Below are positions 29,565-52,002 of a DNA stretch of 57,014 nucleotides, piece by piece. Origin of the DNA: Paraliomyxa miuraensis (GTDB lineage: Bacteria > Myxococcota_A > Polyangia > Nannocystales > Nannocystaceae); assembly GCF_026337845.1 (NCBI RefSeq), contig NZ_JAOVZF010000146.1, positions 1 through 57,014 on the forward strand, given 5' to 3'. A program made the position numbers and the translations under genes. Each line of letters begins with the position of its first letter. Position 1 is the first letter of the stretch. The notes under the pieces are model-generated. The model was not told the DNA's origin and did no database searches. It was given only the letters and a program-made list of their open reading frames with translations.

Positions 29565-30716
<1,152 letters not shown>

Positions 30717-30798
30717 GGGTCTTGCCTGCTTCACTGCTGACGAAGGAATCGATCGGCCCTCGCATCGTGCTCGCGGCAGGAGCACGCACGTGGACCCC

Positions 30799-30842: not shown

Positions 30843-31361
30843 CCGCATCCGACACGACGGTGACGCGGCGACGAACACGGCGACGATCCCTCGGGTCGTC
30901 ACCGCCTCGGCTCGCGATCGTCCTTCCCATCGCTGGGGGTGAGCACCAGGCCCACCGCGCGAGCGAGAGGCCAAAGCCTGGGCTTCAGCGCTCGGTGTTG
31001 CTCGCGGGACTACGCGTCGTCCGGCTCGTGTCGGGCGTCGTCGAATGCCGCCAATCGGCTCTCGACGCGCGAATTCGGGGGTTTGGTCCTACCAGCCCAA
31101 CTGGCCGGTTACGCCGCGGTTGCTGGCAGCGCCGAATCCGAGCGTCCGCCCTGCGGGAGCAGGCCGACGCGCAGATCGAGCATCTGTCGCTTCGCGGTCA
31201 TGATGACCTTTCATGCGCCATGCCCGTCGATGCGTCAAGGAGAATTTTTCGCGGACCGTGCTTCGAATGGCGAGGACGTGCGGTCCGAGCCGCGAGGAGT
31301 GGTGCATGGATGCGGTTGCACGACGGACAGTCGCGACTCGATACTCGTTGCAGGTGATCGC

Positions 31362-34094: not shown

Positions 34095-34880
34095 CTAGAG
34101 CGGCCCCACCACCGCGGCCCAGAGCTCGAGCAGCACCCAGATCGCGCAGCAGGCCGCCGCCGCCTCGAGCAGCACGCGCCACAGCGGCCAGCGCTCGCGG
34201 TCCTCGTCGATGCGGATCACCAGCGGCAAGCCCACCAGGAAGTAGGCGGAGTAGCCCAGCGATCCGAAGCGCAGCATCTTGGCCTTGTCGGCGTAGGCGA
34301 AGTAGTCCGACAGGCCGTCGTTGGCCATGGCGAAGGTCTCCATCCATGCGATGCCGTAGCCGAGCACCAGCACCACGAGCACGCGACCGAGCCAGCCCCG
34401 GCCGACCGACCCGCCGAGCTTGCGCAGCGCGACGGGGGCGGCCACGAAGTAGGTCACGAAGTAGGCCTGCGTCAGCGGGTACATGAACACGGGGACCGTC
34501 TGCGACGAGCGCCCCATGTCGGCCTGCAGCGTCCACGTGACGGGAAAGCTGTAGCGCATGCCCATCAGGTCGAAGAAGTAGTGGGTGCCCACGTAGGTGC
34601 CGAAGAACACCAGCACGAACACCCATGCGTTGAGCTTGAACCACCAGCACTCCCAGACCGGCCGCCCGCGATCGGGACGACCCGGCCACAGCCACGGGCC
34701 CACGACCGCGGCTGCCCCGAGCGCGATCGAGAACAGCAGGTAGCCTCGGTCGCCCCAGGTGTGGATCCAGCCGGTGACGATCACCAGCGCGACCGCGAGC
34801 ATCCAGGCGGCGCTATAGCCCAGCAGCCAGCGCTCGGCCCAGGCCTTGTCGGGGTTGGGAGAGAACCAGGACGAGGCCAT
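34095..34880 (-). CDS. Integral membrane protein (261 aa, ~6 TM segments, Trp-rich). Unknown function.
   Basis: Start MASSWFSPNPDKAWAERWLLGYSAAWMLAVALVIVTGW. The ORF track's 790-aa version includes a long junk extension. Confidence 0.65.
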   Translation of the reverse strand: MASSWFSPNPDKAWAERWLLGYSAAWMLAVALVIVTGWIHTWGDRGYLLFSIALGAAAVVGPWLWPGRPDRGRPVWECWWFKLNAWVFVLVFFGTYVGTHYFFDLMGMRYSFPVTWTLQADMGRSSQTVPVFMYPLTQAYFVTYFVAAPVALRKLGGSVGRGWLGRVLVVLVLGYGIAWMETFAMANDGLSDYFAYADKAKMLRFGSLGYSAYFLVGLPLVIRIDEDRERWPLWRVLLEAAAACCAIWVLLELWAAVVGPL

Positions 34881-35201: not shown

Positions 35202-38200
35202 ATGGTCGGGGCGATCCTCGAGCCGGGCTCCGTCGTGGCCGAGCGCTTCGAGGTGGGCGAGATCATCGACTCGGGCGGCATGGGCAGCGTCTACCGAGCC
35301 ACCGACCTGCTCGACGATCGACGCCCCATCGCGCTCAAGGTGATCCGGGACCAGCCTACACCTCACAGCTCGCAGACGGGCGAGCCTCCGGAGCCCGGAA
35401 CATCGCTCGACACCCAGCAGCTGCTCGACAGCTTCCAGCGCGAGGCGGAGCTGCTGGCCAACCTGCGGCACCCCTCGATCGTCCGCTACGTGCACCACGG
35501 CCGCACCAGTAGCGGGGCCCCCTACCTGGCCATGGAGTGGGTCGAGGGCGAGGACCTCAAGTCCAAGCTTCGTCGCGAGCCGCTGACGGTGGCCCAAACG
35601 CTGCGGCTCGGGCTGCGCCTGGCCGAAGGCCTGGCCGCCGCACACCGCGTGGGGGTGATCCACCGCGACATCAAGCCCAGCAACATCCTGCTGCCCGATG
35701 GCAACGTGGACCAGGCCAAGATCGCCGACTTCGGCATCGCGCAGTTCACTCAATTCGTGCTGATTCGGGGTGGTACGCCGGGCTACATGGCCCCGGAGCT
35801 GCACCTCGAGCGCTCGCAGATCGATGCTCGCGCCGATGTGTACTCGCTGGGCCTGCTGCTCACGCGCTGCCTGTCGACCACCGAGAGCCGCCCCAGCCTG
35901 CAGGGCAGCGAGGATCTCCCCACGGCCACGGTGGTCGAGAAGAGCAGCAGCGCCCAGGTCGTCGACGGCACCACGCTGGGGCTGTCGGTGCCCAACGAGC
36001 TCGACGAGCTGCTGCGCCGCATGCTGTCCACCGACCGCAGCCTGCGTCCGGCCCACGGCGGCGTGGTGGCCTCGCACCTGCAGGCGCTGGCCTCCCGCCT
36101 CGACCCGGACGACACGTCCGTGCTGTCGGCCCAGGAGAAGCAGCTGGTCGGGTTGATTCGGGTGGAGCTCGATCCCCGGGCGCATCCCTCCCGCGACGCC
36201 GTGGCCGAGGTGCTCTCGAAGTTCGGCGCCACCCAGCGCGTGCTGGGCCTGCTGAGCCTGGTCATCACGCTCGAGAGCCGGATCTCCGAGGGCGATCACA
36301 CCCTGCGCACGGCCCTGTGCGCGCTCGAGGTGCGCCGGGTATGCCCCACCGCTCGCCTCGCCCTGGTGTTGGGCCAGATTCCCCCACAAACGCAGCAGAG
36401 CCTGATCACCGCGGCGGAGCGGCTGCTCGACCAGGACGAGCCCACGTCCGACGACGAGGGCGAGCACCCCATCCTCATCGACCCTCGCGCAGCCAACCTG
36501 CTCGACGTGCGCTTCGACGTGGAGCGCACCGATGCGGTGTGTCGCCTGCTCCGACCTCGCCGCGAGCTCGCGGCCGGGCGCCTGCTGCTGGGCAAGCCGA
36601 GCCCCTGGGTGGGCCGCACCGGCGACGTGGACCGCCTGCTGCTCACCTACCTCGACGCGGTGGCGACTCGCCGCCCGCGGGCGGTGGTCATGCAGGCCGA
36701 GGCCGGCATGGGCAAGTCTCGCCTGGTCCAGGAGCTGCTCAGCGGGCTCGAAGCCAGCAACACGCCGCCGCTGGTGTGGATCGCTCGTGGCGACCCGGTG
36801 AGCGCAGGATCACCGTTCGCGCTGCTCGCCCAGCTCGTGCACGCGATGGCGGGAATCGCCGAGGGCGAGAGCATGGCGATCCGGCAGTCCAAGCTGCACC
36901 GCCGGCTCTCCGAGTACTTCCAGGGCACCGAGCTGCGACGCGTGGAGGCGTTCCTCGGCGAGCTCAGCCGCACCCCCTATCCCAACGAGTTCTGCTTGCC
37001 GCTGGTGATCGCGCGCCAGGACCCGCAGTACATGGCCGAGCAGACCCGGCGCGCGTGGGAGGATCTGATCGCGGTTGCGAGCTCCAAGCAGTCGCTGGTG
37101 ATCGTCCTCGACGACTGCCAGTGGGGCGACCTGGCCACGCTGCGCTACTTCGATCATGCGCTGCGCTCGACGGCCACGGGGGCGCTCACGCTGTTGGTGC
37201 TGGCCCGACCAGGCGCCTCTCCCTGGGCCGCGCTCGAGGGCACCCCGGGCTTCTCTCGCTTCCAGCTCGAGCGCCTGTCTGCGAGCGACTGCGCCGCGTT
37301 CCTCCAGGAGGTGCTCGGCGACGATCTCTCGCCCAAGCTCGTGCAGCGCATCATCGAGCGCGCCGCGGGCAACCCCCTGCTGCTCGAGGAGCTCGCCCGT
37401 GCGGTGGGCCAGCGCGGTGACGAGCAGTTCGGGGGCACCGAGGACACGATCTCGGCCCTGATGCACGCGAGGCTTCAGAGCCTGGGCTTCGACGCGCGCC
37501 AGATCCTGCGGGCCGGCAGCGTGTTCGGCCCGGTGTTCTGGCTCGATGGCGTGGTGGCGCTGCGCAAGCGGGGCTCGAGCGCGGCGCTGGTCCGCGAGTG
37601 GCTCGAGGAGCTCATCGATCAGGAGCTCGTCGTACGGCGCCCCACCTCGCGCTATCCCGGCGAGGAAGAGTACGAGTTCCACCACCTGTCGATCCGCGAT
37701 GCGGCCTACGGCATGCTCACCGAGGAGGACACGGTGGCCGCCCACCGCTCGGTGGCACGCTGGCTGAGCGAGCGCGGCGAGAGCAACAGCTACATCCTGG
37801 CCGAGCACTTCCGCCTGGGGCAGGAGCTCTCCGAGGCGGTCCGCTTCTACGTGGAGGCCGGACGACAGGCGTTCGCGCGCAACGAGTTCGAGGCGGTCCG
37901 CGAGATCACCGATCGTGCCCTGGCCTGTGCGGAGGGCGGCGAGCTGCAGGGCAGCGAGCTGCAGGGCAGCCTCGAGCTGCTGCGAGCCGAGACCGAAGCC
38001 TGCCTGGGTCGCCACGCGGAAGCCTCGCGCTTCGCGTTTCGGGCGATGGCGGATCTCACCGAGGGAACGCCATCGTGGCTGGCCGCGGCGGGCGAGGCCA
38101 GCCTGGCCAGCGCACGCATCGGCGAGCACGGCCGCGTGCTCGAGGTCATCGAGCACTTCGACGAGATGGACCTGGGTCTGTCGGGCGGAGGGGTGGAGCT

Positions 38201-39134
38201 GATGGGGATCATCCGCGCGGCGATCCCCCTGGCATCCACGGGCTTTGGAGGGACGGCGCTGGAGGTGCTGGACTCGGTCGAGCGCGCGCTGCAGGCCATC
38301 GCCGATCGCAATCCGGACGCCCGCGGCCCCTATCACTCCGCTCGCGCGCTGCGGGCCCTGTGCACGGGCGAGCTGGCGACCACGCTGTTCGAGCTCGAGG
38401 CGGCATCGCGAGAGTTCGAGTCCGCGGGGAGCCTGCGCACCGCCTGGGAGCACCGGGCGAGCGCGGGCTACACCTGCCTCGAACTCGGCATGCTGATGCG
38501 TGGCGAGGGGCTGCTCATGGAGGTCATCCGGACGACCGAGGGCGTGGGCCTGCACCACCTCAACGCGGTCGCCAAGCACAACCTCGGGCGTCGCCTCGCC
38601 GAGGTCGGACGCATCGACGAGGGACGTGCCCTCGAGCGCAGCGCGCTCAAGGCGTTCCAGAACCACGGCAATCGCCGCATGGAGGGCCTGACCCACGCCT
38701 TCCTCGGGCGCATCGCGCTCGAAGACGGCGATCCGCTCGAGGCCGAGCTCCACGCGCGGCGCGGCGTCGAGCTGCTCGAGCGCGAGTCGGGTTCGAAGAT
38801 CGTGGCGCTGTCGACGTTGGCCCAGGTGCTGCTCCACGTCGACCGGCCCCACGACGCCATGGTCTACGCGCAGCAGGCCTTCGATCAGCTCCAGCAGCTC
38901 GTGCTCGTGCACGAGGGCGAGTCGCTCACCCGCTTGGCCTATGCCGAGGCGCTGTGGGGCTGCGGAAGGCGAGAGCAGGCCCTGGCCGCCATCGCGGAGG
39001 CCCACGCCAACCTGCTCGAGCGCGCCGAGGATCTCGGCGCTGCGGACATGGTCAAGCGCGATTTCTTGCATCGAGTCAGCGAGAACGCAGCCATCCTGCA
39101 GCATGCCCAGGAATGGCCAAAGGCCCCCTCATGA
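35202..39134 (+). CDS. Ser/Thr protein kinase fused to an AAA/STAND-like NTPase and C-terminal TPR repeats (PknK/MalT-like architecture, 1310 aa)
   Basis: Kinase: IIDSGGMGSVYRA, IALKVI, VIHRDIKPSNILL, DFGIAQ, APE. P-loop: VMQAEAGMGKSRLVQEL. Walker B: LVIVLDDCQWGD. TPR-like C-terminus. Start MVGAILEPGS. Confidence 0.85.
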   Translation: MVGAILEPGSVVAERFEVGEIIDSGGMGSVYRATDLLDDRRPIALKVIRDQPTPHSSQTGEPPEPGTSLDTQQLLDSFQREAELLANLRHPSIVRYVHHGRTSSGAPYLAMEWVEGEDLKSKLRREPLTVAQTLRLGLRLAEGLAAAHRVGVIHRDIKPSNILLPDGNVDQAKIADFGIAQFTQFVLIRGGTPGYMAPELHLERSQIDARADVYSLGLLLTRCLSTTESRPSLQGSEDLPTATVVEKSSSAQVVDGTTLGLSVPNELDELLRRMLSTDRSLRPAHGGVVASHLQALASRLDPDDTSVLSAQEKQLVGLIRVELDPRAHPSRDAVAEVLSKFGATQRVLGLLSLVITLESRISEGDHTLRTALCALEVRRVCPTARLALVLGQIPPQTQQSLITAAERLLDQDEPTSDDEGEHPILIDPRAANLLDVRFDVERTDAVCRLLRPRRELAAGRLLLGKPSPWVGRTGDVDRLLLTYLDAVATRRPRAVVMQAEAGMGKSRLVQELLSGLEASNTPPLVWIARGDPVSAGSPFALLAQLVHAMAGIAEGESMAIRQSKLHRRLSEYFQGTELRRVEAFLGELSRTPYPNEFCLPLVIARQDPQYMAEQTRRAWEDLIAVASSKQSLVIVLDDCQWGDLATLRYFDHALRSTATGALTLLVLARPGASPWAALEGTPGFSRFQLERLSASDCAAFLQEVLGDDLSPKLVQRIIERAAGNPLLLEELARAVGQRGDEQFGGTEDTISALMHARLQSLGFDARQILRAGSVFGPVFWLDGVVALRKRGSSAALVREWLEELIDQELVVRRPTSRYPGEEEYEFHHLSIRDAAYGMLTEEDTVAAHRSVARWLSERGESNSYILAEHFRLGQELSEAVRFYVEAGRQAFARNEFEAVREITDRALACAEGGELQGSELQGSLELLRAETEACLGRHAEASRFAFRAMADLTEGTPSWLAAAGEASLASARIGEHGRVLEVIEHFDEMDLGLSGGGVELMGIIRAAIPLASTGFGGTALEVLDSVERALQAIADRNPDARGPYHSARALRALCTGELATTLFELEAASREFESAGSLRTAWEHRASAGYTCLELGMLMRGEGLLMEVIRTTEGVGLHHLNAVAKHNLGRRLAEVGRIDEGRALERSALKAFQNHGNRRMEGLTHAFLGRIALEDGDPLEAELHARRGVELLERESGSKIVALSTLAQVLLHVDRPHDAMVYAQQAFDQLQQLVLVHEGESLTRLAYAEALWGCGRREQALAAIAEAHANLLERAEDLGAADMVKRDFLHRVSENAAILQHAQEWPKAPS

Positions 39135-39847
39135 ACGACACCCAGGCTCCTCTCGACGTCTACACCTTTGGTCCGGCGTGGGACATTCCGGTGCTCACCG
39201 CGTCCCCCTTCGGAGTCAAGCTCATCACGTGGTTGCGGATGCAGGACCTGCCGCACCGGGTCCACGTGGAGAACAACCCGGGCAAGGGCCCCAAGGGCAA
39301 GTGCCCCTGGGTGATGGTCGATGGCCAGGCCCTCGGAGACTCGGAGATGGTGATCGAGACCATCAAGCAGCGTCGCGGCATCCGGACCGATACCGGGCTC
39401 ACGCCGCAGCAGCTCGCCCTCGCCACCGCGGTTCGCCTGATGCTCGAGGATCACTTCCACCAGGTGTGGGAGCACGAGCTGTTCATCTTCGACGGCGGCT
39501 GGAAGCGAGCCTACGAGTTCTTCGACCAGCTCCCGCCCGGCGTGCGGGTGCTGGTCCGCAACGTGGCCCGCTCGGCGCTGCGCAAGCAGCTCCATGCCCG
39601 CGGGGTGGGCCGCCACACGCACGAGCAGATCGTGCAGATGGGCATCGAGGATCTCGACGTCATCGAGACGCTGCTCGGCGACGGACCGTTCTTCTTCGGC
39701 GAAGAGCCCCGCGACATCGACGCCACGGTGTTCGGGTTCCTGTCGCTGACCTACTGGACCCCATCGGAGAGCCCGGTATGGGCGAACCTCCGCTCGCGCC
39801 GAGCGCTGTGCGACTACTGCGAGCGCATCCGAGAGCGGTACTATTAG
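39131..39847 (+). CDS. Glutathione S-transferase-family protein (thioredoxin-like N-terminal domain plus helical C-terminal domain)
   Basis: Its ATG overlaps the kinase stop (ATGA). N-terminus MNDTQAPLDVYTFGPAWDIPVLTASPFGVKLITWLRMQDLPHRV... resembles a GST/FAXC-like fold. 238 aa. Confidence 0.6.
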   Translation: MNDTQAPLDVYTFGPAWDIPVLTASPFGVKLITWLRMQDLPHRVHVENNPGKGPKGKCPWVMVDGQALGDSEMVIETIKQRRGIRTDTGLTPQQLALATAVRLMLEDHFHQVWEHELFIFDGGWKRAYEFFDQLPPGVRVLVRNVARSALRKQLHARGVGRHTHEQIVQMGIEDLDVIETLLGDGPFFFGEEPRDIDATVFGFLSLTYWTPSESPVWANLRSRRALCDYCERIRERYY

Positions 39848-39971
39848 CCTCGTCTTGATGGCGGGGCTTCGCAGCCCCGCCCCCGTGCCGGCAAAGCCGT
39901 CACGGGGCCCCCTCCCCGGCGGTCGGGCGGAGCCCTCCTGGTTGCTGTAGTGAGATGCTCTCGATGGCTTC

Positions 39972-40793
39972 TTACTTGGGGGTGGGTTCGTCGTCGTCGT
40001 CGGGGACGAGGATGCCGTAGACGGCGGCTTCGAGGCGGTTGGCGACCTCGGGGGTGACGACGTCGTGGGGCGAACGGAGGTAGCCGCCGATGGCGTTGAG
40101 CGCCGCGTCGCCAAAGCGCTTGAGGTAGCACTTGAGCTTCGCGTCCGAGTCCTTGAGGAACGCGAGGTCGGTCAGCATCATGTTGCGGACCGCGAGCAAG
40201 GGAATGGGGCTGCGCAGCGGCTTGAACTCCTGGTTGTGCAGCCCGGGCTTCTCGCACTCGGCGTGGAACTCCCCGATCATCAGCCCACGCTCGACGAAGG
40301 TCTGAGACAGGCTCAGCTGAACATCGTCCACCCACTCGCCCTCGAGGCTGGGGAACAACACCAGCATCGCCTTGAGCCCGGCCTTGGCGCCCATCCGGGG
40401 TGGCCGCGACTCGAAGTCCTTCATCGTCTGCATCATCACGGCGTTCATCGAGGGACGTGGATCGGCATCGAACACGTGACACACGGCGGAGTAGAGCAGG
40501 CCCTCGCGCATCGCCACCTGGGTGTACGGGCACACGTCGCCGCTGCGCCCCAGGTCCTCGTGGGTGCGACATAGATAGTCCACCGTCCAGCGTGCGACCT
40601 CACCGAGCACGCCAAGGTCCGAGGCGTCCACCTCGGTCAGCTCGATCGTCCCGCGGAGGGCTTGCAGCACCTCTCGGAGCGCGACGAACGGAGTCAGCGA
40701 GAAGTTGTCGACCACCGCTCCCCGAATCCCAGCGCAGATACGGTACCATGAGGTGATCGTGATCGAGCCCAGAGGTAGGGTCCTTGGCACCAC
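39972..40793 (-). CDS. Hypothetical protein (~270 aa). Start uncertain: candidate GTG starts at 40793 or 40715.
   Basis: The C-terminal two-thirds look coding-like (…MREGLLYSAVCHVFDADPRPSMNAVMMQTMKDFESRPP…EFHAECEKPGLHNQEFKPLRSPIPLLAVRNMMLTDLAFLKD…). The ORF track's N-terminal extension is junk. No family recognised. Confidence 0.45.
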   Translation of the reverse strand: MVPRTLPLGSITITSWYRICAGIRGAVVDNFSLTPFVALREVLQALRGTIELTEVDASDLGVLGEVARWTVDYLCRTHEDLGRSGDVCPYTQVAMREGLLYSAVCHVFDADPRPSMNAVMMQTMKDFESRPPRMGAKAGLKAMLVLFPSLEGEWVDDVQLSLSQTFVERGLMIGEFHAECEKPGLHNQEFKPLRSPIPLLAVRNMMLTDLAFLKDSDAKLKCYLKRFGDAALNAIGGYLRSPHDVVTPEVANRLEAAVYGILVPDDDDEPTPK

Positions 40794-40975
40794 CAGTCCG
40801 AGGCTGGACCACCTTCCTCGGGGGCTCTCGGGCGGCGAATCCAACGCGGTGGCCCGTGACGGGCCGGCGGTGTCCGAGAGGACTCGAACGCACACGTGAC
40901 TCCGGGGGCGGGGGATTCCCTGACCCCCCACGCTCTGCGGGGCCATGCGAAGATTTGGGGCTCGTGGACATCCAC

Positions 40976-42517
40976 ATGACCACCGACCCGTCCTCCCTTC
41001 CTCCTCGACGCACCCGCGTCCTCGTGATCGGCGGCGGCCCTGGCGGCTCCATGGCCGCGATCTTGCTCGCTCGCGAGGGCATGGAGGTCACGCTCCTCGA
41101 GCGCGACCAGTTCCCGCGCTACCACATCGGAGAGTCGCTGCTGACGTCGGCGATCCCGGTGCTCAAGTTCGTGGGGCTGTACGAGCGCATGGAAGCGCAC
41201 GGCTTCGTTCGCAAGCACGGGGGCTACTTCACGCTCAAGGAGGGGGCGCCTCCGGGCCACATCGACTTCCGCAAGGTCAGCGTCCACCAGCACTCCTATC
41301 AGGTGATCCGCTCGGAGTTCGATCACCTGCTGCTGCAGTACGCGGCCGAGATGGGCGCCCAGGTGTTCGAGCGAACCGCGGTCACCGGCGTCGACTTCGA
41401 GGGCGATCGACCGGTGCGTGCGCGCTGGCAGCAGCAGGGCGGCAGCAGCGGGGAGCTCGAGTTCGAGTACGTGATCGACGCCTCGGGCCTCTCGGGCCTG
41501 CTGTCGACCAAGGTGCTGCACAACCGCAAGTTCCAGCCCGCCTTCGCCAATGTGGCGGTGGGCAGCTACTGGAAGGGCTACGACGAGTACGTCGCGCCCG
41601 ACGGCACCCCGCAGGAGGGGCGCTTCTTCATGGAGGCGCTGCGGGACGGCTCGGGCTGGATCTGGGCGATCCCGCTGCACGACGGCACCATGAGCGTGGG
41701 CGTGGTGATGCATACGGACGAGTTCCAGCGCCTGCGCACCGCACTTCCGACCGAGGGGGCCGAAGGCGGGGCCGACGTGGAGGCGATCTACCGCCATGGC
41801 ATCGACAAGGCGCCGCACCTGCGCAACATGCTGGCCAAGGCCGAGATGACCAAGCCGGTCCAGACCTGGCGCGACTACTCGTACATCGCCGACACCTTCT
41901 CGGGACCGGGCTACCGGCTCGTGGGCGACGCGGCGGCGTTCATCGACCCGCTGTTCTCCACCGGGGTGCACCTGGCGTTCCTGGGAGCGGTCTCGGCGGC
42001 CGCGTCGATCGCGGGGCGGCTACGCGGAGAGCTCGACGAGGACGCGGCGATCGGGTTCCACGACCGCTGCATCCGCAAGGCGTACGTGAACTTCGCGATC
42101 ATCGTGTCGGGGATGTACAAGCAGATCCGGCGTCAGGACGAGGTGGTGCTGTACGGCATCGCACAGACGGACTTTCGCGCGGCCTTCGATGTGATCCTCC
42201 CGCTGATCTCGGGGAGCGCGGATCTCGAGGGGGATGCGGTGGATCCGAACACCATCGATCGGGCGGTGAGCTTTGCGATCGAGATGGTCAACGAGCGGGC
42301 GCAGCTCGGCACCGAAAATCCGGCGGCGCGGCTGCTCGTGAAGAAGGGGAGCGTGCACGAGGACCTCACGGCGGAGCCGGATCAAGCGGTGGGAGGGTGG
42401 TACATCCGCATGGAGCGGGGCCGGCTCGGCCTGGCGCAGGTGGTCGAGCAGGAGAAGATCGACAAGGAGAAGCAGCAGCTGACCAACGAGCTGCTGGAGG
42501 TGGCCCAGAGCAGCTAG
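40976..42517 (+). CDS. Flavin-dependent halogenase (tryptophan-halogenase family)
   Basis: VLVIGGGPGGSMAA (FAD GxGxxG), GSGWIWAIPLHDG (the WxWxIP motif characteristic of flavin-dependent halogenases), FIDPLFSTGVHLA (FxxPxxSxG). Start MTTDPSS. Confidence 0.8.
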   Translation: MTTDPSSLPPRRTRVLVIGGGPGGSMAAILLAREGMEVTLLERDQFPRYHIGESLLTSAIPVLKFVGLYERMEAHGFVRKHGGYFTLKEGAPPGHIDFRKVSVHQHSYQVIRSEFDHLLLQYAAEMGAQVFERTAVTGVDFEGDRPVRARWQQQGGSSGELEFEYVIDASGLSGLLSTKVLHNRKFQPAFANVAVGSYWKGYDEYVAPDGTPQEGRFFMEALRDGSGWIWAIPLHDGTMSVGVVMHTDEFQRLRTALPTEGAEGGADVEAIYRHGIDKAPHLRNMLAKAEMTKPVQTWRDYSYIADTFSGPGYRLVGDAAAFIDPLFSTGVHLAFLGAVSAAASIAGRLRGELDEDAAIGFHDRCIRKAYVNFAIIVSGMYKQIRRQDEVVLYGIAQTDFRAAFDVILPLISGSADLEGDAVDPNTIDRAVSFAIEMVNERAQLGTENPAARLLVKKGSVHEDLTAEPDQAVGGWYIRMERGRLGLAQVVEQEKIDKEKQQLTNELLEVAQSS

Positions 42518-42559
42518 TCCCAGGACGCGAGGCCGCGGGTGGCTCGAGAGGTTGCCGGT

Positions 42560-44089
42560 CTACTGGCGCCGCAGGTGGCGCTTGACCGCCCCCAGCAAGC
42601 TGCGGGCGTCGAAGGGCTTGGGGAGGAACTCGCTGATGCCCAATGCCTTGACCTCCTTGGTCCGGGCGGGGTCGGTGTGGCCCGAGACGATGACGACGGG
42701 GAGGTCGCATTCGAAGGAGCGGAGGACCTTGAGCACCTCGGCGCCGTCGATGCGGGGCATGTCGAGGTCGAGCACGATGAGGCGCAGCTCGGCGGCTCGC
42801 TCGGCGTAGCGGCGAAGGGCCTCGGCACCATCGGTGGCGGTGACCACGTCGGCTCCGTCGCGTGACAGCACGCGCGTGATGGCGGTGCGTACGAGCGGGT
42901 CGTCGTCGGCCACCAGCACCAGGCCGGTGATGCCACCGCTCATCGAGAGCTCGGGGCGCGGACCCACGAACGTGCTCTCGCGCGCGCTCTCGGCCGAGGG
43001 CAGGTGGATGATGAACTCGGTGCCCTTGCCCACCTCGCTGCGGGCCTCGATGCTGCCGTTGTGATCGCGCAGGATCGCCTGCACGGTGGCCAGGCCCAGG
43101 CCCGTGCCCTGCCCGCGCGGCTTGGTGGTGAAGAACGGCTCGAAGATCCGCGCCAGGGTCACCGGATCGATGCCCAGGCCCGTGTCGGCGAAGGTGACTC
43201 GCACGTAGGGACCGGGCTGGAGCTGCTTGGTCTCCTGGGTCACCTCGACCGCGTCGGCCGAGATGGTCAGCGTGCCGCCGCGAGGCATGGCGTCCTTGGC
43301 ATTGATGCAGAGGTTCATCGCCACCTGCAGCAAGCGCGAGGTGTCGCCGATGACCAGCAGATCGTCGGGGATCTCGGTGGTGATCGCCACGTTGCGCGGC
43401 AACGTACGGCGCAGCAGGTCCACGCCCTCCCGGATCAGCTCGTGGAGGCGGATCGAGCGGTGCTCGGAGGTCGTGCGCCGACCAAACCCCGACAGCTGCC
43501 GCGTGAGATCGATGGCGCGGCGCACCGCGGCCTCCATCTCCTCGAGGCACTGCGCGGTCTCGGTGTCGTGGTGCTTGGTGCCGAGGAAGGTGACGTTGGC
43601 GAACAGCGCCCCGAGGATGTTGTTGAAGTCGTGCGCCACCCCTCCCGCGAGCTGCCCGAGCGCCTGCATCTTCTGGGCGACCAGGAGGTGGTCTTCGAAG
43701 CGCTCGCGCCGGGCCAGGGCCAGCACGGTCTGCTCGCCCAGCGCGATCTCGTCGCCGAACTCGAGCACGGCCTCCTTGACGCGGTGCCCGTTGACGCGAA
43801 CCCCGTTGCGACTGTCGAGGTCGCGCACGTAGTAGTGGCCGTCGGTGTTGCGCCCCACCAGGGCGTGGCGTCGGGAGATGCCCTGATCGGAGACGATCGC
43901 GTCGCAGTCCTTGCCGCGACCGAGCACCACGTCGCCTTCGAGGTAGATGCGTCGGCCGGGATCGTCACCCGCGAGGATGACCAGACAATCGGCCGCCTCG
44001 GCTCGCGGGTCGATCGGAAACCGATGCATCGAGGTTCGCGTGTGCTCCTCGACCGAGTCGTAGCGCCTATAGTTCTCGCGGGGGGCCAT
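42560..44089 (-). CDS. FHA-domain hybrid sensor histidine kinase (FHA, HisKA, HATPase, then a C-terminal receiver)
   Basis: FHA: [31 protein letters not shown]...[15 protein letters not shown]. HisKA: [13 protein letters not shown]. HATPase: DTGLGI...GTGLGLA. Receiver: [10 protein letters not shown]...LDLDMP...KP. The start is ambiguous: Met at 44089 or 44029. Confidence 0.8.
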
Positions 44090-44275
44090 GGACGACGCCG
44101 CAGACCAAGCTCCCGTGGATGATAGCAAGCAGCGCCGGCTCGCCACGGCTCGGGATGCGCGCCAAGTCGCCGAGCGCCCAAGCGGCCCAAGAAGGGTCAC
44201 GAAAGGGGACGCTGGGCCGGTGCGGGGTGAGCGGACGTCGAAGGCCCCGCCCGCGGCTCAGGGGAGCCCCTAGCC

Positions 44276-45217
44276 CTAGCCCTCGGTCGCGGGCGTGGCC
44301 TCGTCGGCGCACTCCTCGGCGCCCACGTAGTCGGGATCGCAGGGGTCGGTGATGGCCTGGACCTCGGCGGGCGGAGGCGAGGCCTCGACCGCCTGCTTGC
44401 CGCCCTTGGCCCACTCCGCCTCGATCTCGATGAGCAGCGTGGCCTTGCCCACGATCTCGTTGTTGATGGTCCGCTTCACCGAGACCGGGTAGCCCCCCGT
44501 GGCAGAGAACGCGGCCTTGGTGCTCTGCTTCATCTTGACCTGCTGCCCGTCGCGCTCCATCTCGGCCTCGGACGCGAGCTCGAGCTTGGCGATGTCCTCG
44601 CCCGCTTCGTTGCGCCCCAGACCTCCGAGGGTGCCCGTGCTCGACATCGACGTGACGCCGGGCTTGCGCTCGCGCGGCGCGGCGTCCCAGGTCTCCCCGT
44701 CCTTGATCGGCTGCTCGGGAACCCTCACGAACCCGGCCGTGACCGCGCTGGCGATCATCGTAAAGATGGTCTTGCTCTCCATCGGCGCGTCCGGGGGCGG
44801 CTCGGGCTCGTTGCTCACCTCGCCGAGCTCGGTGAGGTCGAAGCCGAGCTCCTTGCCGTTGAGAGCCGTGGCCGCCTCCTGGGTGAGCCCGACCGCTTCC
44901 GCGGGAACCCCGTCGGGCAGGCGTAGATCGAGCTTGATCCCGTCCACGCGCGCGCGCACGAGCGCCCCACCACCCTGCGTCTTCGCCGAGACCACGAGCT
45001 TGGCGTCGAATTCGACCACCGTCACGATGTCGCCCAGAGGGGTCTGGGCGGCATTGCGCATGCGAATGTGACCGTCGTACTCCTGCCCGGGCGTGAGATC
45101 GTAGCGCATGCTCACGCCCGCCTCGGGCACCTCCACCTCGGTGAGCTTCCCCTGCTTGGAACAACCAGGGGCCAAGGGCAACGCGAGCGCGATGGCCATG
45201 ATGGTGCGGCGGAGCAT
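44276..45217 (-). CDS. Lipoprotein of unknown function (313 aa)
   Basis: MLRRTIMAIALALPLAPGCSKQ carries a lipobox. Clean ORF. Confidence 0.65.
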   Translation of the reverse strand: MLRRTIMAIALALPLAPGCSKQGKLTEVEVPEAGVSMRYDLTPGQEYDGHIRMRNAAQTPLGDIVTVVEFDAKLVVSAKTQGGGALVRARVDGIKLDLRLPDGVPAEAVGLTQEAATALNGKELGFDLTELGEVSNEPEPPPDAPMESKTIFTMIASAVTAGFVRVPEQPIKDGETWDAAPRERKPGVTSMSSTGTLGGLGRNEAGEDIAKLELASEAEMERDGQQVKMKQSTKAAFSATGGYPVSVKRTINNEIVGKATLLIEIEAEWAKGGKQAVEASPPPAEVQAITDPCDPDYVGAEECADEATPATEG

Positions 45218-45494
45218 GAGCGGGTTTTATGCCAGCGTCCGCAGCACCGTCCATGCCACCCTGCGAGGGGCCGATGCTGGTGCGGTTGGGATGACGGTGA
45301 TCATGGTCCGGAATTTCGTGATACAAATCACTTTACATGGTTCACGACGGGCTCTGCTCCGAATGTCGCCGCTGGGCGGCAAGAACCGCGTCCACGGAGG
45401 GCTTGCACCAAGGAGCCCCGGATGAAGGGTCGATCGCGCTCCCTTGGATTCCTGGAAATCGAAGACCATTGCTCCGCGAGGGTCCCGTCGGGAA

Positions 45495-48400
45495 ATGAGC
45501 TCCAAGCCCATCGTCGTGCCGCGAGTGCGACGGCTCTACCGAGGGCCATCTGCGACGGCGGATGGCCCGACCGCGGCTTACCCGGTCATTCCCGTGGTCC
45601 CCGGCTACCGGATCCTCGGGCACGTCGCATCGGGGGGCATGGGCAACGTGTATGCGGCCACGTCGCTGCGGACCCATCGCAAGGTCGCGCTCAAGCTCGT
45701 TCGTCCGGAGAACCACACCCCGGCGACCGCCGAGCGGATCCTGCGAGAGGTCCGTGCGCTGTCGGGGCTCTCCCATCCGGGGATCGTCGAGTACGTGGAC
45801 CACGGGACCACGCCCGAAGGGATCCCCTACCTGGCGATGGAGTGGCTCGATGGCGTGGACCTCGACGATCGGCTCCATCACGGGCCGCTGTCGATCGATG
45901 ATGCGCTGGCGCTGGCCGTTCGGGTGGCCGAGGCCCTCGCCGCCGCGCACGAGCACGGCGTCATCCATCGCGACATCAAGCCCAGCAACATCTTCCTGGT
46001 GGGGGGGCGCCCCTCCGACGCGCGCTTGCTCGACTTCGGCGTGGCGCGGCTGCTGACGCACACGTGGACGCTCACCCTCCCCGGCAAGGTGATCGGGACC
46101 CCGGACTACATGTCCCCGGAGCAGGCCAGGGGGGCCCCCGATCTCGATCCTCGCGCCGATCTGTTCTCGCTGGGCTGCGTGCTGCACGAATGCCTGTGCG
46201 GAGAGCCAGCGTTCGTGGGCGAGCACGTGATGGCGGTGCTCGCCAAGGTGCTCATGGAGAACCCGCCCCGGCTCGGGCGCCTGGTGCCGGAGATCCCCGT
46301 GGTGCTCGAGGAGATCGTCGCCCGGCTGCTCGAGAAGGATCGCGAGCGCCGCATCGGCAACGCCCGCGAGCTCGCGCAGCGCCTGCGCAGCCTGGTCGAC
46401 GGCAACGACGAGCCGCTCGAGCTGATCTCCGAGGCGCTGACGCAGGACGAGCAGGTACTGTGCTCGGTGCTGTTCTTCCGCGGTCGCTCCGAGGACGTGG
46501 CCGACCCCATCGATCTCACCGAGCTCGCCAAGGAGCACCTGGGGCACGACCACACGCTCGTCGACGGGACTCGCCTCATCGTGATGGATTGCGGCGGCGC
46601 GGCCTCCGATCAGGCCGCCACCACGGCCCGCTGTGCGCTCGCCCTGCGCGAGCGTGCGCCTCACTATGCGATCGCGGTGGCCTCCGGCCACGGCATCGTC
46701 ACGGGCCGCTCCATCATGGGGCAGGTCCTCGACCGCGGCGCCGATCTGCTGCTGCGCGGGCGACCGGGCAACATCTGCATCGACGACGTGACGGCGAGCC
46801 TGCTCGATCCCAGCTTCGAGGTGGCCGATGGCACCTCCGGGCTGACCCTGGTCGCGGTCCGCGACACGCAATCGGGCACCCGGCGCCTGCTGGGCAAGAA
46901 GACGCCGCTGGTCGGACGACGTGGCGAGCTCGCACACCTCGAGGCCGTGTTTGCCGAGTGCTGCGAGGAGCTGTGCGCGGCCGCGGTCCTGATGATCGGC
47001 AACGCGGGTGCGGGCAAGTCCCGGCTGCGCCACGAACTCGACGCCCGCCTCCGATCGCACCCCGGACAACCGGTGACCACCTTCCTCGGTCGCGCCGATC
47101 CGATGCGGACCCAGGCGCCGCTGTCGTTGATGTCCCGGGTGCTCTGCGGCGCGGCGAGCCTCGAGGACGGCGAGCCCACGGCCATTCGGCAGCACAAGCT
47201 GCGGACTCGGATCGCGCGCCACGTGGGCCGCGAAGAGATCGAGCGCGTCACCCTGTATCTGGGCGAGCTCGTCTCTGCCTACGGCAACGACGCCCCGCTC
47301 GAGCTACGACTGGCCCGCGAGGACTCCGCCTCGCTGCGCGCCCGAATCCGCGAAGCCTGGGTCACCTGGCTGCGGGCCGAGAGCAACGCGAGCCCGGTCT
47401 TGTTCGTGCTCGAGGATCTGCACTGGGCCGACGCCGCGACCGTGCAGCTGATGGACACGCTGCTCGAGCAGCTGGAGGGCCAGCCGATCCTGGTCCTGGC
47501 GCTGGCTCGGCCCACCGTGCACGACCTCTTCCCCGAGCTGTGGAAGCATCGCGACGTGGAGACCCTCGAGCTCTCGCCGCTGGCGCCCCGGGCGGCCCGC
47601 AAGCTCGTCCACGAGGTGCTCGGGGACACGGTCGAGCACCACGACGTGGAGCGGATCGTCAAGGGAGCCGGCGGCAACGCGTTCTTCCTCGAGGAGCTGA
47701 TCCGCGCGGTCGCCGATGGCTCGGGCGGCGAGCTGCCCGACTCCGTTCTGGGCATGATGCAGGCGCGGCTCGGCTCGCTGACCAGCTTCGAGCGCAAGGT
47801 GCTCCGCGCCGCCAGCGTGTTCGGCGAGACCGCATGGCAGGGAGGCATCCGCGAGCTGCTGGGACGCGATGCCGACGTGGAGGCGCTCGGACCCACGCTG
47901 ATGCGCCTGGCCAACGAAGAATGGCTGACCCCTCGCCCACGCTCGCAGATCCCCTGTGACTACGAGTACACGTTTCGGCACGCGCTGGTGTGCGACGCGG
48001 CCTACGCCACCCTGACCGACGCCGATCGGCGCGTGGGCCATCGCCTGGCGGGGCGCTGGCTGGAGCGCGCGGGGGGCCAGGAAGCGGTGGTGCTCGCCGA
48101 GCACTTCTTGCGCGGAGAGGATCATCCCAAGGCCACCGAGTGGTTCGCGACGGCAGCCGACCAGGCGTTCGAGCGGCACGAATTCGACGTGGTGCTCCAG
48201 CTCGTCGAGCGGGGTCAGCGGCATGCCGTGCCCGGTGAGGCTCGGGGGCGGTTGCTGCTGCGCCGGACCGAGCTCCATGCGATCTCGGGCCGCCATCAGG
48301 AGGCCGTGGAAGCGGCCATGGCCGCGCTCGAGGAGCTCCCCCTGGGCAGCGCCCGCTGGTACAGCGCCGCCGGGGAGGCTGCGCTCGCGATGAGCCGCAC

Positions 48401-49409
48401 CGAGCAGCCCTGGCGAGTGGGGCAGCTCATCGACCGACTGATGAACGCCGAGCTGGCCAGCTGCAGCGGCGCGATGGGCCTCGTGCGCGCCGCCGTGCCG
48501 CTCGCCGCCGCCGGCGACGTCGCGACGTCGCGACGGCTCGTGGAGAAGATCATCGACATCACGGCCACCATGGTCGACGAGGATCCCGAGGCCGCCGCAA
48601 CCATGCACTCGGCACGAGCGATGCTCGCGATCGCCGACGGCGATCTGAGCCAGGCGTACCAGGCCATGGAGGCCGCCGCCAACGCGTTCGAGAGCGCGGG
48701 GAGCCTGCGCAACTCCCTCGAGCACTTTGCCGGCGCCGGCTTCTTCATGCTCGAGGTCGGGAGCCGCGAGCGGGGCGAGGCGCTCTTGCGGCAGACGATC
48801 GAGCGCTGCGTCGAGCTGCGGCTCGAGCACGTCTGTGCCGTTACCCGCCACAACCTCGGCCGGCGCCTGGTCGACGTTGGTCGGTTCACCGAGGGTCTCG
48901 AGCTCGAGCTCGACGCCCTCGCCAGCTTCGAACGGCACGGCAACCAGCGCATGATGGGCCTCACCCGCTGCCACATCGCGTGGATCCTGCTCCACGAAGG
49001 CCGCACGCACGAGGCAATGGGTCACGTGGATCTGGCGATCGAGCTGCTCGAGGGCCACGCCGTCTCTCGCTCGATCTCGCGTGCGACCCGGGCGCAGATC
49101 CACCTCTCGTCGGGAGCCCCGCAGCTCGCGCTGGAGGACGCCAGGATCGCGATCGAGGGTCTCGAGTCGCTCGATCGCGTGCAGGAGGGCGAGTCGTTCA
49201 TTCGGCTCACCTGGGCCGAAGCCCTCGCGGCGGCCGGCCACCTCGACGAGGCCCGGGCGGCCATCCTCTCGGCCAAGCGCAGCGTCGACGAGCGAGCGCG
49301 CCGCATCGACGAACCGGAGCTACGCGAGAGCTTCTCGACCCGGGTTCCCGAGAACGCACGCATCCTGCAGCTCGCCACGCAGTGGATCGAGCTCGGGTCG
49401 GGGACCTGA
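45495..49409 (+). CDS. Second Ser/Thr kinase fused to an NTPase and TPR repeats, a paralog of the 35202..39134 protein (1304 aa)
   Basis: Kinase: GHVASGGMGNVYAA, VALKLV, VIHRDIKPSNIFL, DFGVAR, SPE. P-loop: GNAGAGKSRL. Walker B: LFVLEDLHWAD. The C-terminal block TRHNLGRRL.DVGRF.EG..LE..AL..FERHGNQRM.GL is shared with the first kinase. Confidence 0.85.
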   Translation: MSSKPIVVPRVRRLYRGPSATADGPTAAYPVIPVVPGYRILGHVASGGMGNVYAATSLRTHRKVALKLVRPENHTPATAERILREVRALSGLSHPGIVEYVDHGTTPEGIPYLAMEWLDGVDLDDRLHHGPLSIDDALALAVRVAEALAAAHEHGVIHRDIKPSNIFLVGGRPSDARLLDFGVARLLTHTWTLTLPGKVIGTPDYMSPEQARGAPDLDPRADLFSLGCVLHECLCGEPAFVGEHVMAVLAKVLMENPPRLGRLVPEIPVVLEEIVARLLEKDRERRIGNARELAQRLRSLVDGNDEPLELISEALTQDEQVLCSVLFFRGRSEDVADPIDLTELAKEHLGHDHTLVDGTRLIVMDCGGAASDQAATTARCALALRERAPHYAIAVASGHGIVTGRSIMGQVLDRGADLLLRGRPGNICIDDVTASLLDPSFEVADGTSGLTLVAVRDTQSGTRRLLGKKTPLVGRRGELAHLEAVFAECCEELCAAAVLMIGNAGAGKSRLRHELDARLRSHPGQPVTTFLGRADPMRTQAPLSLMSRVLCGAASLEDGEPTAIRQHKLRTRIARHVGREEIERVTLYLGELVSAYGNDAPLELRLAREDSASLRARIREAWVTWLRAESNASPVLFVLEDLHWADAATVQLMDTLLEQLEGQPILVLALARPTVHDLFPELWKHRDVETLELSPLAPRAARKLVHEVLGDTVEHHDVERIVKGAGGNAFFLEELIRAVADGSGGELPDSVLGMMQARLGSLTSFERKVLRAASVFGETAWQGGIRELLGRDADVEALGPTLMRLANEEWLTPRPRSQIPCDYEYTFRHALVCDAAYATLTDADRRVGHRLAGRWLERAGGQEAVVLAEHFLRGEDHPKATEWFATAADQAFERHEFDVVLQLVERGQRHAVPGEARGRLLLRRTELHAISGRHQEAVEAAMAALEELPLGSARWYSAAGEAALAMSRTEQPWRVGQLIDRLMNAELASCSGAMGLVRAAVPLAAAGDVATSRRLVEKIIDITATMVDEDPEAAATMHSARAMLAIADGDLSQAYQAMEAAANAFESAGSLRNSLEHFAGAGFFMLEVGSRERGEALLRQTIERCVELRLEHVCAVTRHNLGRRLVDVGRFTEGLELELDALASFERHGNQRMMGLTRCHIAWILLHEGRTHEAMGHVDLAIELLEGHAVSRSISRATRAQIHLSSGAPQLALEDARIAIEGLESLDRVQEGESFIRLTWAEALAAAGHLDEARAAILSAKRSVDERARRIDEPELRESFSTRVPENARILQLATQWIELGSGT

Positions 49410-50884: not shown

Positions 50885-50976
50885 GCACGGCGAGCATACG
50901 ACGCCATCGACACCACGCGCGAAGGCGCGAGGGACCCGCGGCAGTGGTATCGTGGGTCCACCAGGCGAACGCGACG

Positions 50977-52002
50977 ATGAGCTCGACGGGCAAGGCGCGT
51001 GTGTGCGCAAGACGCTTCCTCTGGCGTGCCGGATGGGAAGCCGTGGCGTCGTCGCTGCTGCTGCTGGGATGTGCCGTGGGCACGGGGACCGATGGCGCGG
51101 GCTCGGCCTTCAGCGTGGGCGAGGCCGGGGGCGGCTCCGATGGCACCGGTGACGGCGCCAGCGGCGACGACGTGGCCGACGGCTCGGGGGGTGGCTCGGC
51201 CACCACGGTCGGGCCGCCCACCGGTGACACCGACGATCCGCCTCCGCCGGGCGGGGAGATCTGCAATGGCCTCGACGACGACGGCGATGGTCAGGTCGAT
51301 GAGGACCAGCCATCGCAAACCTGCGGGGTGGGCTCGTGCGAGGTCACCCAGCCCACCTGCGTGGGTGGGATCCCTCAGCCGTGCACTCCCGCGCTGCCGG
51401 GCGGCGAGGTCTGCAATGGCCTCGACGACGACTGCAACGGAGCCGTGGACGACGTGGGGCAGGCATGCTCCAACGCGTGCGGCAACGGGACCACGGTGTG
51501 CATGGGCAACGCCGAGGTCTGCGATGCGCCGGCCCCGGCGGCCGAGAGCTGCAACCTCGACGACGACGATTGCGACGGCGACTTCGACGAAGGCGTGGGC
51601 GGCTGCCGCGTGAGCGTGCATCGCTTCGTGCATCCCACCACCGGCGAGCACTTCTACACGGCCAGCCTCGCCGAGGGGCAGGGGGCCGGCTTCTCGCTCG
51701 AGGTGGCCAGCTACTTCGAGCTCTACGCGGGCGCACACGCGGGGCTGACCGCCTTCCACCGCTGCTATCAGCCGGGTGGCTTCCACCTCTACACCCAGGA
51801 TCCCGGCTGCGAGGGACTGCAGCTCGAGGGCGTGCTGGGCTACATCGCCACCGGCGCGGGCACGGCCGGCTCGATCCCCCTCTACCGACTCTACCGGGCC
51901 GCCAACGGCGACCACTTCTACACCACCAGCGCGGCCGAGCGAGACAACGCGATCGCGAGCTTCGGCTACGTCGGCGAGGGGACGGCCGGCTACGTGTGGT
52001 AG
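50977..52002 (+). CDS. Lipoprotein with MopE-like putative metal-binding repeats (CNGxDDDxDGxxDE) and a C-terminal triplet of ~45-aa 'HFYT' repeats
   Basis: Start MSSTGKARVCARRFLWRAGWEAVASSLLLLGCAVG (lipobox). Metal-binding repeats: CNGLDDDGDGQVDED, CNGLDDDCNGAVDD, CNLDDDDCDGDFDE. Three HFYT repeats: HRFVHPTTGEHFYTAS, FHRCYQPGGFHLYTQD, LYRLYRAANGDHFYTTS. Confidence 0.7.
   Translation: MSSTGKARVCARRFLWRAGWEAVASSLLLLGCAVGTGTDGAGSAFSVGEAGGGSDGTGDGASGDDVADGSGGGSATTVGPPTGDTDDPPPPGGEICNGLDDDGDGQVDEDQPSQTCGVGSCEVTQPTCVGGIPQPCTPALPGGEVCNGLDDDCNGAVDDVGQACSNACGNGTTVCMGNAEVCDAPAPAAESCNLDDDDCDGDFDEGVGGCRVSVHRFVHPTTGEHFYTASLAEGQGAGFSLEVASYFELYAGAHAGLTAFHRCYQPGGFHLYTQDPGCEGLQLEGVLGYIATGAGTAGSIPLYRLYRAANGDHFYTTSAAERDNAIASFGYVGEGTAGYVW

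Follow-up and report, generated by a model that had tools for sequence, protein, structure and literature searches.

A conserved gene cluster of Nannocystaceae joining giant STAND-type kinases and an FHA hybrid histidine kinase with probable halogenating and indole-oxidising enzymes

Introduction

In the marine myxobacterium Paraliomyxa miuraensis, two giant Ser/Thr kinases carrying a STAND NTPase, K1 and K2, bracket genes for a glutathione S-transferase (GST), a heme enzyme of the cytochrome P422 (DUF6875) family, a flavin-dependent halogenase, a hybrid histidine kinase with an FHA domain and a lipoprotein. The locus belongs to contig NZ_JAOVZF010000146.1, of which positions 1 to 57,014 were analysed and are called the window below. 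It raises the question of whether these signalling proteins and enzymes form one working unit. The original prediction, made from the DNA letters, had suggested either a duplicated STAND-like signalling module wired to a small-molecule-modifying cassette or a recombination-prone island.

The present study dealt with the identities of the genes, the integrity of their motifs, the conservation of their linkage and the phylogeny of the kinases. The region is a conserved cluster, and the odds seem about even that it encodes a STAND-kinase/FHA signalling unit that would serve specifically a halogenated metabolite derived from tryptophan or indole.

Conservation of the cluster in related genomes

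Related loci, denoted by L numbers, were collected by scans of genome and metagenome collections and by homologue look-ups. At least 12 loci of Nannocystaceae or metagenomes contain the entire block, which takes three rearranged layouts and has differing flanks (Table 1); it is therefore not a strain-specific island. A K1-type kinase, the GST, the P422 enzyme (a PrnB-like heme enzyme in L001), the halogenase and an FHA protein co-occur in the window, L004+L002, L003, L005, L007, L015, L016, L017, L040, L001 and L009/L010. The survival of the kinase-FHA-GST-halogenase linkage through these rearrangements supports the idea of signalling wired to a small-molecule-modifying cassette. The genes lying between the two kinases, which might have proved to be missing from relatives, are kept there in synteny, and the halogenase, at first taken for an orphan, has its partners conserved around it.

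Conservation is strongest for the pair of kinase and GST, which usually has an FHA protein in its vicinity. The GST gene is directly downstream of the kinase gene in every K1-clade locus, in L042, whose kinase is of the L001 type, and in L041, whose kinase is K2-like; in all of them the two genes are coupled by ATGA or separated by a few base pairs. The translational coupling (ATGA) of K1 and GST predicted for the window was confirmed at base level. The pair is kept in L041 (K2-like kinase, then GST) and L042 (an FHA protein gene, then kinase-GST-P450) even though the halogenase is absent from both. The GSTs are 54–73% identical to one another, compared with 35–44% for the kinases.

The variants differ in their additional genes. 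The 660–716-aa gene of the relatives lies between the halogenase and the hybrid kinase in L002, L005 and L007 and between the GST and P422 in L003 and L016; L015 has it upstream of K1 and has no gene for the ABM monooxygenase. L001 encodes a PrnB-like heme enzyme together with an FAD monooxygenase, and L009/L010 an FMO-type flavoprotein together with a DUF6875 protein. The genes outside the block vary between EF-Tu, hypothetical and membrane protein genes and an aldehyde dehydrogenase with a sigma factor; M20 was found in one case and an isocitrate-type dehydrogenase in another. In L017, the lipoprotein gene abuts the same M20/DUF5648 flank as the window. Halogenase homologues of 50% identity or less (from Acidobacteriota, a Myxococcaceae metagenome-assembled genome (MAG), where the gene is near a polyketide synthase (PKS), and others) have none of these partners. 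In the Myxococcaceae MAG (L012), genes for a type I and a type III PKS precede a homologue of 50% identity, a setting classical for phenolic polyketides and unlike that of the window.

The genes of the window, which has a GC content of 70%, were called by frame-specific GC3 and Pfam, and all seven predicted genes were confirmed at their positions, those of the hybrid kinase, halogenase and lipoprotein between the two kinases by Pfam or by the lipobox.

Table 1. Coordinates of the features discussed and gene order in the layouts of the cluster. Hal, halogenase; FHA-HK, FHA hybrid histidine kinase; Lipo, lipoprotein; (-) in a layout, minus strand; bits, Pfam scores
Feature	Locus	Position	Strand	Description
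K1	window	35202-39134	+	1310 aa; Ser/Thr kinase, putative degenerate cyclase-homology domain, AAA_16 STAND NTPase, putative sensor of helical/TPR-like repeats at the C-terminus
K1 Pkinase	window	about 35247-36056		aa 16-285; 124 bits
K1 cyclase-like domain	window	about 36114-36596
K1 AAA_16	window	about 36603-37181		aa 468-660; 60 bits
GST	window	39131-39847	+	IsoI/StyI-like; GST_N_4 + GST_C_6; ATG 39131-39133 overlaps K1 TGA 39132-39134
Cytochrome P422 (DUF6875)	window	39972-40715	-	thiolate-heme enzyme; GTG start probable
Halogenase	window	40976-42517	+	RadH-like, flavin-dependent; divergent from P422 gene
FHA-HisKA-HATPase_c-REC hybrid histidine kinase	window	42560-44089	-	cytoplasmic; convergent with halogenase; true start at 44089
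REC domain	window	about 42584-42919
FHA domain	window	about 43736-43930
Lipoprotein	window	44276-45217	-	lipobox LAPGC
K2	window	45495-49409	+	1304 aa; architecture of K1; divergent from lipoprotein/FHA-kinase operon
K2 Pkinase	window	about 45609-46370		151 bits
K2 AAA_16	window	about 46905-47495		60 bits
Layout	window, L015, L017			K1-GST, P422(-), Hal, FHA-HK(-), Lipo(-), K2; K2 absent in L017
Layout	L004+L002, L003, L005, L007, L016, L014			window order + 97-aa ABM gene overlapping halogenase start + 660-716-aa gene
Layout	L040			FHA-HK, Hal(-), ABM(-), P422, K2-like, GST(-), K1-like(-)
Layout	L001, L009/L010			kinase divergent from (ABM-)Hal, then stand-alone FHA protein; GST nearby
AetF-like gene	L005	11512-13662	-
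AetF-like gene	L002	1087-3120	-
AetF-like gene	L003	6032-8059	-
AetF-like gene	L015	1583-3601	-
AetF-like gene	L016	4637-6643	-
K2 orthologue	L002	5962-9870	-	Nannocystaceae MAG
Junction without K2	L017	13412-13594
Out-group kinase and downstream genes	L043	6001-15597		Sorangium cellulosum So0157-2
PKS genes and halogenase homologue	L012	2520-11512		Myxococcaceae MAG
MopE-like protein	window	7386-8738	-
RNA_ligase protein	window	23405-24904	-
ECF sigma factor	window	25067-25741	+
Third kinase	window	25742-28933	+	Pkinase + three TPR_12
tRNA genes	window	29339-29504; EF-Tu gene, 29565-30974	-
Membrane protein	window	34095-34880	-	261 aa, multi-pass
MopE-like protein with DUF5648	window	50944-52002	+

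Domain architecture of the kinases

K1 and K2 are identical over their full length to the NCBI proteins of P. miuraensis (100% identity, 100% coverage), which agrees with the starts adopted here. The catalytic Lys, HRD, DFG and APE motifs, as read from the sequence, are intact in both; K1 has the VAIK-type Lys in IALKV, followed by HRDIKPSN, DFG and APE. The Walker A/B motifs read GMGKS/VLDD in K1 and GAGKS/VLED in the other kinase. The region between the kinase and NTPase domains, compared with the PDB as a family profile, matched class III cyclases only, and weakly (best 3mr7, E 1.8e-4; 2w01, 3r5g and 6fht weaker), and the cyclase-like domain seems to be without the metal-binding Asp in an alignment of low confidence. 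The NCBIfam model TIGR03903, "kinase/cyclase fusion", gave 210 bits for K1 (E 6e-62) and 279 bits for K2 (E 8.5e-83) against a cut-off of 705.75.

The two proteins align from end to end with 35% identity (612 bits). The architecture that they had been predicted to share is upheld for the kinase and AAA_16 NTPase domains, to which both add a putative degenerate cyclase-like domain and helical repeats; the TPR assignment itself has weak Pfam backing, with a sub-threshold TPR_12 match in K1 (20.7 bits, cut-off 30.1) and no TPR match to K2. The near-identical C-terminal motif also proved real: HNLGRR...H(G/D)N.RM.GLT is invariant in the superclade formed by the K1 and K2 lineages and looser in other members of the family. 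Both genes are on the plus strand, as expected, with 6,360 bp between them. At the DNA level, their likeness comes down to short patches, of which the longest is 180 nt at 73%.

Origin of the two kinases

Neighbour-joining trees (1,260 aligned columns) were built from the K1 and K2 lineages and 37 other family members. They placed the K1 clade with the L001-type kinases and the K2 clade with the K2-like kinases as sister clades, and a branch with 100% bootstrap support separated this superclade from the 37 other members; K1 itself is on a long branch. The sister position at this support and the clade-specific motif identify K1 and K2, as far as their sequences tell, as true paralogues. Raw similarity does not make them mutual nearest relatives, since more than 100 kinases of other genera outscore K1 against K2. 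The orthologues of K1, 64–83% identical, occupy the same position in other loci; they are followed by kinases adjacent to a halogenase or GST (42–44%) and then by many Polyangia proteins (33–38%). For K2, orthologues are 57–69% identical, K2-like kinases 48–51%, and more than 100 further proteins 39–44%.

The duplication thus appears to be ancient, neither recent nor local, because the paralogues retain 35% identity and each has positional orthologues at 57–83% in other genomes. The expectation of a duplicated STAND-like module therefore stands in the evolutionary sense of paralogy, and the comparison at the protein and DNA levels speaks against a local event. It is likely that an ancestral kinase-GST operon was duplicated long ago and that the K2 of the halogenase cluster lost its GST.

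K2 is the dispensable member of the pair. It has positional orthologues of 63–69% identity in L005, L015 and L002, has no orthologue at the same junction in L017 and is absent from L003. The orthologue in L002 is inverted in place, and in L017 the gene is missing precisely between the lipoprotein and M20 peptidase genes; no repeats explaining the inversion in L002 or the absence in L017 were found.

The kinase family as a whole exceeds 1,500 members. Two out-group kinases (L043, L044) have other downstream partners, for instance a sigma-54 activator and a hydantoinase. In L043, downstream of the kinase come a GAF/sigma-54 activator and another kinase, which carries nSTAND1 and FGE-sulfatase domains; in these few sampled contexts, the giants adjoin differing downstream genes.

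Enzymes of the cluster

The gene predicted as hypothetical in fact encodes a cytochrome P422, matching PF21780 with 188.5 bits at a cut-off of 24.5. In a 2025 preprint, the DUF6875 family was renamed cytochrome P422, a thiolate-ligated heme family hydroxylating tryptophan at N1, C6 or C7; one member forms a C-S bond on a 6-chloro-tryptophan derivative in thienodolin biosynthesis, beside a tryptophan halogenase. A 2026 JACS paper adds another indole example. The heme motif RSGDVCP (RxGxVCP, with the heme Cys) and the indole-clamp motifs RNMMLTDLAF (Rx(M/L)x3Dx2F) and MIGEF (MxGxF) are intact; their positions are 98–100% conserved in 151 family representatives, taken from a library clustered at 50% identity. 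With the heme Cys and the indole clamp present, the enzyme looks active, judging by its motifs. The SBR2 motif, Dx2(Q/H)x3K, is not matched: the sequence in the window is DDVQLSLS, where Ser replaces a Lys that anchors the tryptophan carboxylate and is essential in ThnD. In the six cluster orthologues this position is always S, A or G; Lys occupies it in 137 of the 151 representatives. A single representative cluster (P0346, 66% identical) groups with the P422 of the window, and the next-best match is at 42%.

The halogenase is 100% identical to an NCBI protein of P. miuraensis. Its best PDB match is RadH (8gu0, E 2e-97, aa 10–445), followed by CmlS (8e-59), and CndH and PltA were also matched. 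The motifs GGGPGGS (GxGxxG) and GWIWAIP (WxWxIP) and Lys80 (VRKHGG), which aligns to Lys74 of RadH, are invariant in ten clade members; with these catalytic motifs intact, the enzyme looks active. Sub-threshold NCBIfam matches were to QhpG (155 bits, cut-off 240), LodB and GoxB. Among the genes of the 57-kb window, none was recognised as a flavin reductase. The enzyme was considered as a maker of miuraenamide and rejected as such, that role belonging to the Bmp5-like MiuG of the miu cluster, which lies elsewhere in the genome.

The 660–716-aa protein of the relatives is a homologue of AetF (E 2.8e-108), the single-component tryptophan 5,7-dibrominase of aetokthonotoxin biosynthesis. Equivalents of the catalytic Lys258 and Glu200 are kept; in the C-terminal part of AetF, which binds the substrate, the homologues could not be aligned to it. 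The gene is present in L002, L003, L005, L007, L015 and L016, at three different positions within the cluster. An earlier idea, that this neighbour of about 700 aa is a LodA-like quinoprotein, was abandoned, as it has no LodA Pfam match and is AetF-like.

The GST carries the domains GST_N_4 (70 bits) and GST_C_6 (61 bits). It matches StyI (PDB 9qd3) with E 2e-19 and about 29% identity, and NCBIfam IsoI over its full length with 110.6 bits, below the equivalog cut-off of 300. The motifs KCPW, with the cis-Pro, and GDSE of the G-site are conserved in eight orthologues and can be aligned to StyI. Pfam also matches the protein to GST-like domains of the Tom37/metaxin type.

FHA hybrid histidine kinase and lipoprotein

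Pfam finds FHA (64 bits), HisKA (23), HATPase_c (84) and Response_reg (88) domains in the hybrid kinase. The phospho-threonine-binding residues of the FHA domain (GR...SRRH...NG), the H-box AHDFNN and the receiver Asp were read from the sequence. NCBIfam indicates a CckA-type core, with sub-threshold matches to EspA/EspC. Orthologues are 78–90% identical and lie beside the 3′ end of the halogenase gene. The stand-alone FHA proteins of L001, L009 and L042 are about 32% similar to the FHA domain of the hybrid kinase over 56 aa.

The lipoprotein gene is upstream of the hybrid kinase gene on the same strand, and the two are likely to be co-transcribed. Orthologues of 62–66% identity are found in L002, L005, L015 and L017. 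The lipoprotein has no Pfam or NCBIfam match, and its single-sequence AlphaFold2 model, with a predicted local distance difference test score of 39.6, is unusable.

Possible role of the cluster and alternative explanations

Across the variants, three independent tryptophan-specific families appear, P422, AetF-like and PrnB-like, and from this we infer that the enzymes act on a tryptophan- or indole-type molecule; the order of the reactions and the question of which protein phosphorylates which are likewise inferred. In the relatives, the AetF-like enzyme may brominate the substrate beforehand. P422 would oxygenate the indole-type substrate to a hydroxy-indole, the kind of electron-rich ring that RadH-type enzymes halogenate, and the RadH-like enzyme would then halogenate this hydroxy-aromatic. 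The GST might conjugate a thiol to an electrophilic oxidised intermediate. On the signalling side, the C-terminal repeats and NTPase switch of the kinase may sense the metabolite or a cue governing it; the active kinase would place phospho-threonine marks, and the FHA domain of the hybrid kinase would read them and feed a His-Asp relay setting either production of the compound or the response to it. The Esp system of Myxococcus and the kinase/cyclase giants that accompany TOMM clusters serve as precedents.

Several points weigh against this assignment. AetF-like and ABM genes, present in relatives, were not found in the window (AetF-like: tblastn, E<1e-3), so that its pathway may be altered or decaying; the P422-halogenase intergenic regions are too divergent to align for ABM remnants or deletion borders. 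P422 is without the carboxylate-anchoring Lys, and free tryptophan may therefore not be the substrate. According to the annotation of the window, no ferredoxin pair, transporter, DNA-binding output or flavin reductase is encoded nearby. K2 is missing or inverted in some genomes. The low likeness between the stand-alone and hybrid FHA domains means that the FHA partner may have been recruited twice. Kinases are very abundant in these genomes, so proximity alone means little, and all loci come from one bacterial lineage, where shared descent inflates the apparent replication.

In a more specific version, the adjacent P422 and halogenase would make a halogenated signal derived from tryptophan, and the kinase-GST-FHA unit would be its dedicated receptor and relay. 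The STAND Ser/Thr kinase would perceive the ligand, perhaps via the GST, and pass the signal through phospho-threonine and FHA to the histidine kinase. It is put forward tentatively and seems rather unlikely in this full form; if true, marine myxobacteria would have a small-molecule signalling circuit not recognised before.

The constancy of the kinase-GST coupling, while the nearby oxygenase varies between P422, P450 and PrnB-like with FAD monooxygenase, allows another view of the GST. It could be a stoichiometric and possibly non-catalytic partner of the STAND kinase, or its substrate, for example a subunit docked on the repeat domain that binds a ligand or senses redox state or electrophiles, with the oxidative enzymes as interchangeable clients of the pair. 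The better conservation of the GST than of the kinase and its Pfam matches fit this view, as eukaryotic Tom37/metaxin-type GST-like domains are non-enzymatic protein-interaction modules. The full-length likeness to the catalytic, epoxide-opening StyI/IsoI and the conserved G-site motifs speak against it, and such a role is considered improbable.

It is similarly doubtful that the neighbourhood has been kept by descent only, in a kinase-rich lineage, with the kinases and the FHA kinase signalling on unrelated matters. The origin of all loci from Nannocystaceae-like genomes, the size of the family, whose members stand beside genes as different as a sigma-54 activator and a hydantoinase, and the dispensability of K2 would agree with simple descent. 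However, the same gene set is found in three orders, with halogenases at 61–83% and kinases at 42% identity and with replaced flanks, which is the usual signature of selection for linkage, and in L042 the kinase-GST-FHA triad is found next to a different oxygenase.

Detoxification or catabolism of exogenous indoles or halogenated aromatics, coming for instance from prey or sponge-associated microbes and sensed by the kinases as xenobiotics, appears less plausible still. IsoI/StyI-type GSTs do serve catabolic epoxide pathways, the window is without core biosynthetic genes, such as PKS or non-ribosomal peptide synthetase genes, and without tryptophan-supply genes, and its version of the cluster lost the AetF-like halogenase. 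On the other hand, dehalogenase, ring-cleavage and efflux genes are not present, characterised P422 members sit in biosynthetic clusters (2025 preprint), and relatives carry two flavin-dependent halogenases. Flavin-dependent halogenases are known as anabolic enzymes.

There is little to recommend the view that the flavoprotein and the heme enzyme modify a tryptophan residue of a protein, in the manner of LodB/GoxB/QhpG-type cofactor maturation. The sub-threshold halogenase matches to these proteins and the missing Lys for a free amino-acid carboxylate in P422 would accord with it, but the best matches are true halogenases, RadH and CmlS, with the catalytic Lys and WxWxIP present, no LodA/GoxA/QhpC-like substrate protein is encoded, and the neighbour of about 700 aa in relatives is AetF-like and not LodA-like.

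Largely refuted, and barely tenable, is the view that the duplication was recent and local or that the kinase genes bound a recombination-prone island. The direct orientation and common architecture of the kinases, and the gene loss, AetF-like relocation and single K2 inversion within the cluster of relatives, would suit it, but the kinases are too divergent in protein and DNA, orthologues of both occur in other genera, synteny is kept for the interior genes, and GC content is even across the region (66–72%). Direct and inverted repeats were looked for around K2 and over the whole cluster, with short coding-sequence patches as the only outcome; there were no long or flanking repeats to drive recombination, and no mobile-element genes were found in the region.

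Other features of the window

PADLOC returned generic kinase-domain matches for the two giants and nothing for the five remaining proteins of the cluster, and a defence-system interpretation was dropped because the matches are generic. The promoter and terminator scan gave no signal exceeding shuffled expectation, and Rfam found only two tRNAs in the window, far upstream of the cluster; both tRNA genes are directly downstream of the EF-Tu gene. A third kinase of the window, without AAA_16, abuts an ECF (extracytoplasmic function) sigma factor gene, and the two look like a regulatory pair. The membrane protein gene divergent from K1 lies within a long antisense open reading frame; the protein has no Pfam or NCBIfam match, and its gene is beside K1 in no relative. 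An RNA_ligase domain is joined with a tRNA-binding domain in one protein, and two proteins have MopE-like metal-binding motifs, the second of which also contains DUF5648 and is kept beside the M20 peptidase in L017.

Comparison with known systems

Every component belongs to a known family, and the combination was not found described in a narrow full-text search of the literature. Should the linkage prove functional, it offers a testable case of cross-talk from a Ser/Thr kinase through FHA to a histidine kinase tied to defined chemistry, and it identifies a strongly conserved kinase-GST gene pair. It would also flag a lineage of AetF-like, P422 and RadH-like enzymes in marine myxobacteria, where new biocatalysts and polyhalogenated indole metabolites are likely to be found. 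P. miuraensis itself is shown to have a second halogenase system, one with no relation to MiuG, the brominase for miuraenamide.

On the chemical side, the thienodolin clusters (thn/thd, with the P422 enzymes ThnD/ThdM) also have P422 beside a flavin-dependent halogenase and thiol chemistry on an oxidised indole. The halogenase of the window, however, is RadH-like (phenolic) and not a PrnA/RebH-type tryptophan 6-halogenase, P422 is without the SBR2 Lys, and a GST stands in place of sulfur-carrier genes. The relatives resemble the aetokthonotoxin system in having an AetF homologue, a second, two-component-type halogenase (cf. AetA) and a heme oxygenase. The aetokthonotoxin pathway also includes a tryptophanase, a nitrile synthase and a P450 (AetE, AetD and AetB); homologues of these were not seen, and the window itself is without the AetF-like gene. 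RadH/Rdc2-type enzymes are the best structural relatives of the halogenase, which keeps their catalytic Lys, WxWxIP and FAD motif; their usual setting is a polyketide cluster, as in L012, whereas the window has no PKS and the partner is a tryptophan-type heme enzyme. The GST shares full-length homology and the same Pfam pair with IsoI/StyI; it scores below the equivalog cut-off and is coupled to a kinase, not placed in an alkene-degradation operon.

On the signalling side, the Esp system of Myxococcus xanthus, where the hybrid histidine kinases EspA/EspC work with the Ser/Thr kinases PktA5/PktB8 (PMC4320627), likewise combines a receiver-bearing hybrid histidine kinase with eukaryotic-like kinases. 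The hybrid kinase of the window is not orthologous to these proteins (190 bits against a cut-off of 1400) and is without PAS domains; its partners are STAND giants, and its setting is an enzyme cluster, not a developmental-timing locus. An N-terminal FHA domain is present in EspA as well. The closest counterparts of K1 and K2 in length and domain order are the TIGR03903 TOMM kinase/cyclase and a Polyangia family of about 1300 aa with Pkinase, cyclase-like, AAA_16 and TPR domains (Sorangium, Byssovorax, Kofleriaceae), and hundreds of full-length homologues of K1/K2 exist. By its NCBIfam name, TIGR03903 denotes giants accompanying natural-product (TOMM) clusters. K1 and K2 score far below its cut-off and the window has no TOMM genes; they fall into a superclade of their own, which the HNLGRR...RM.GLT motif and the downstream GST set apart.

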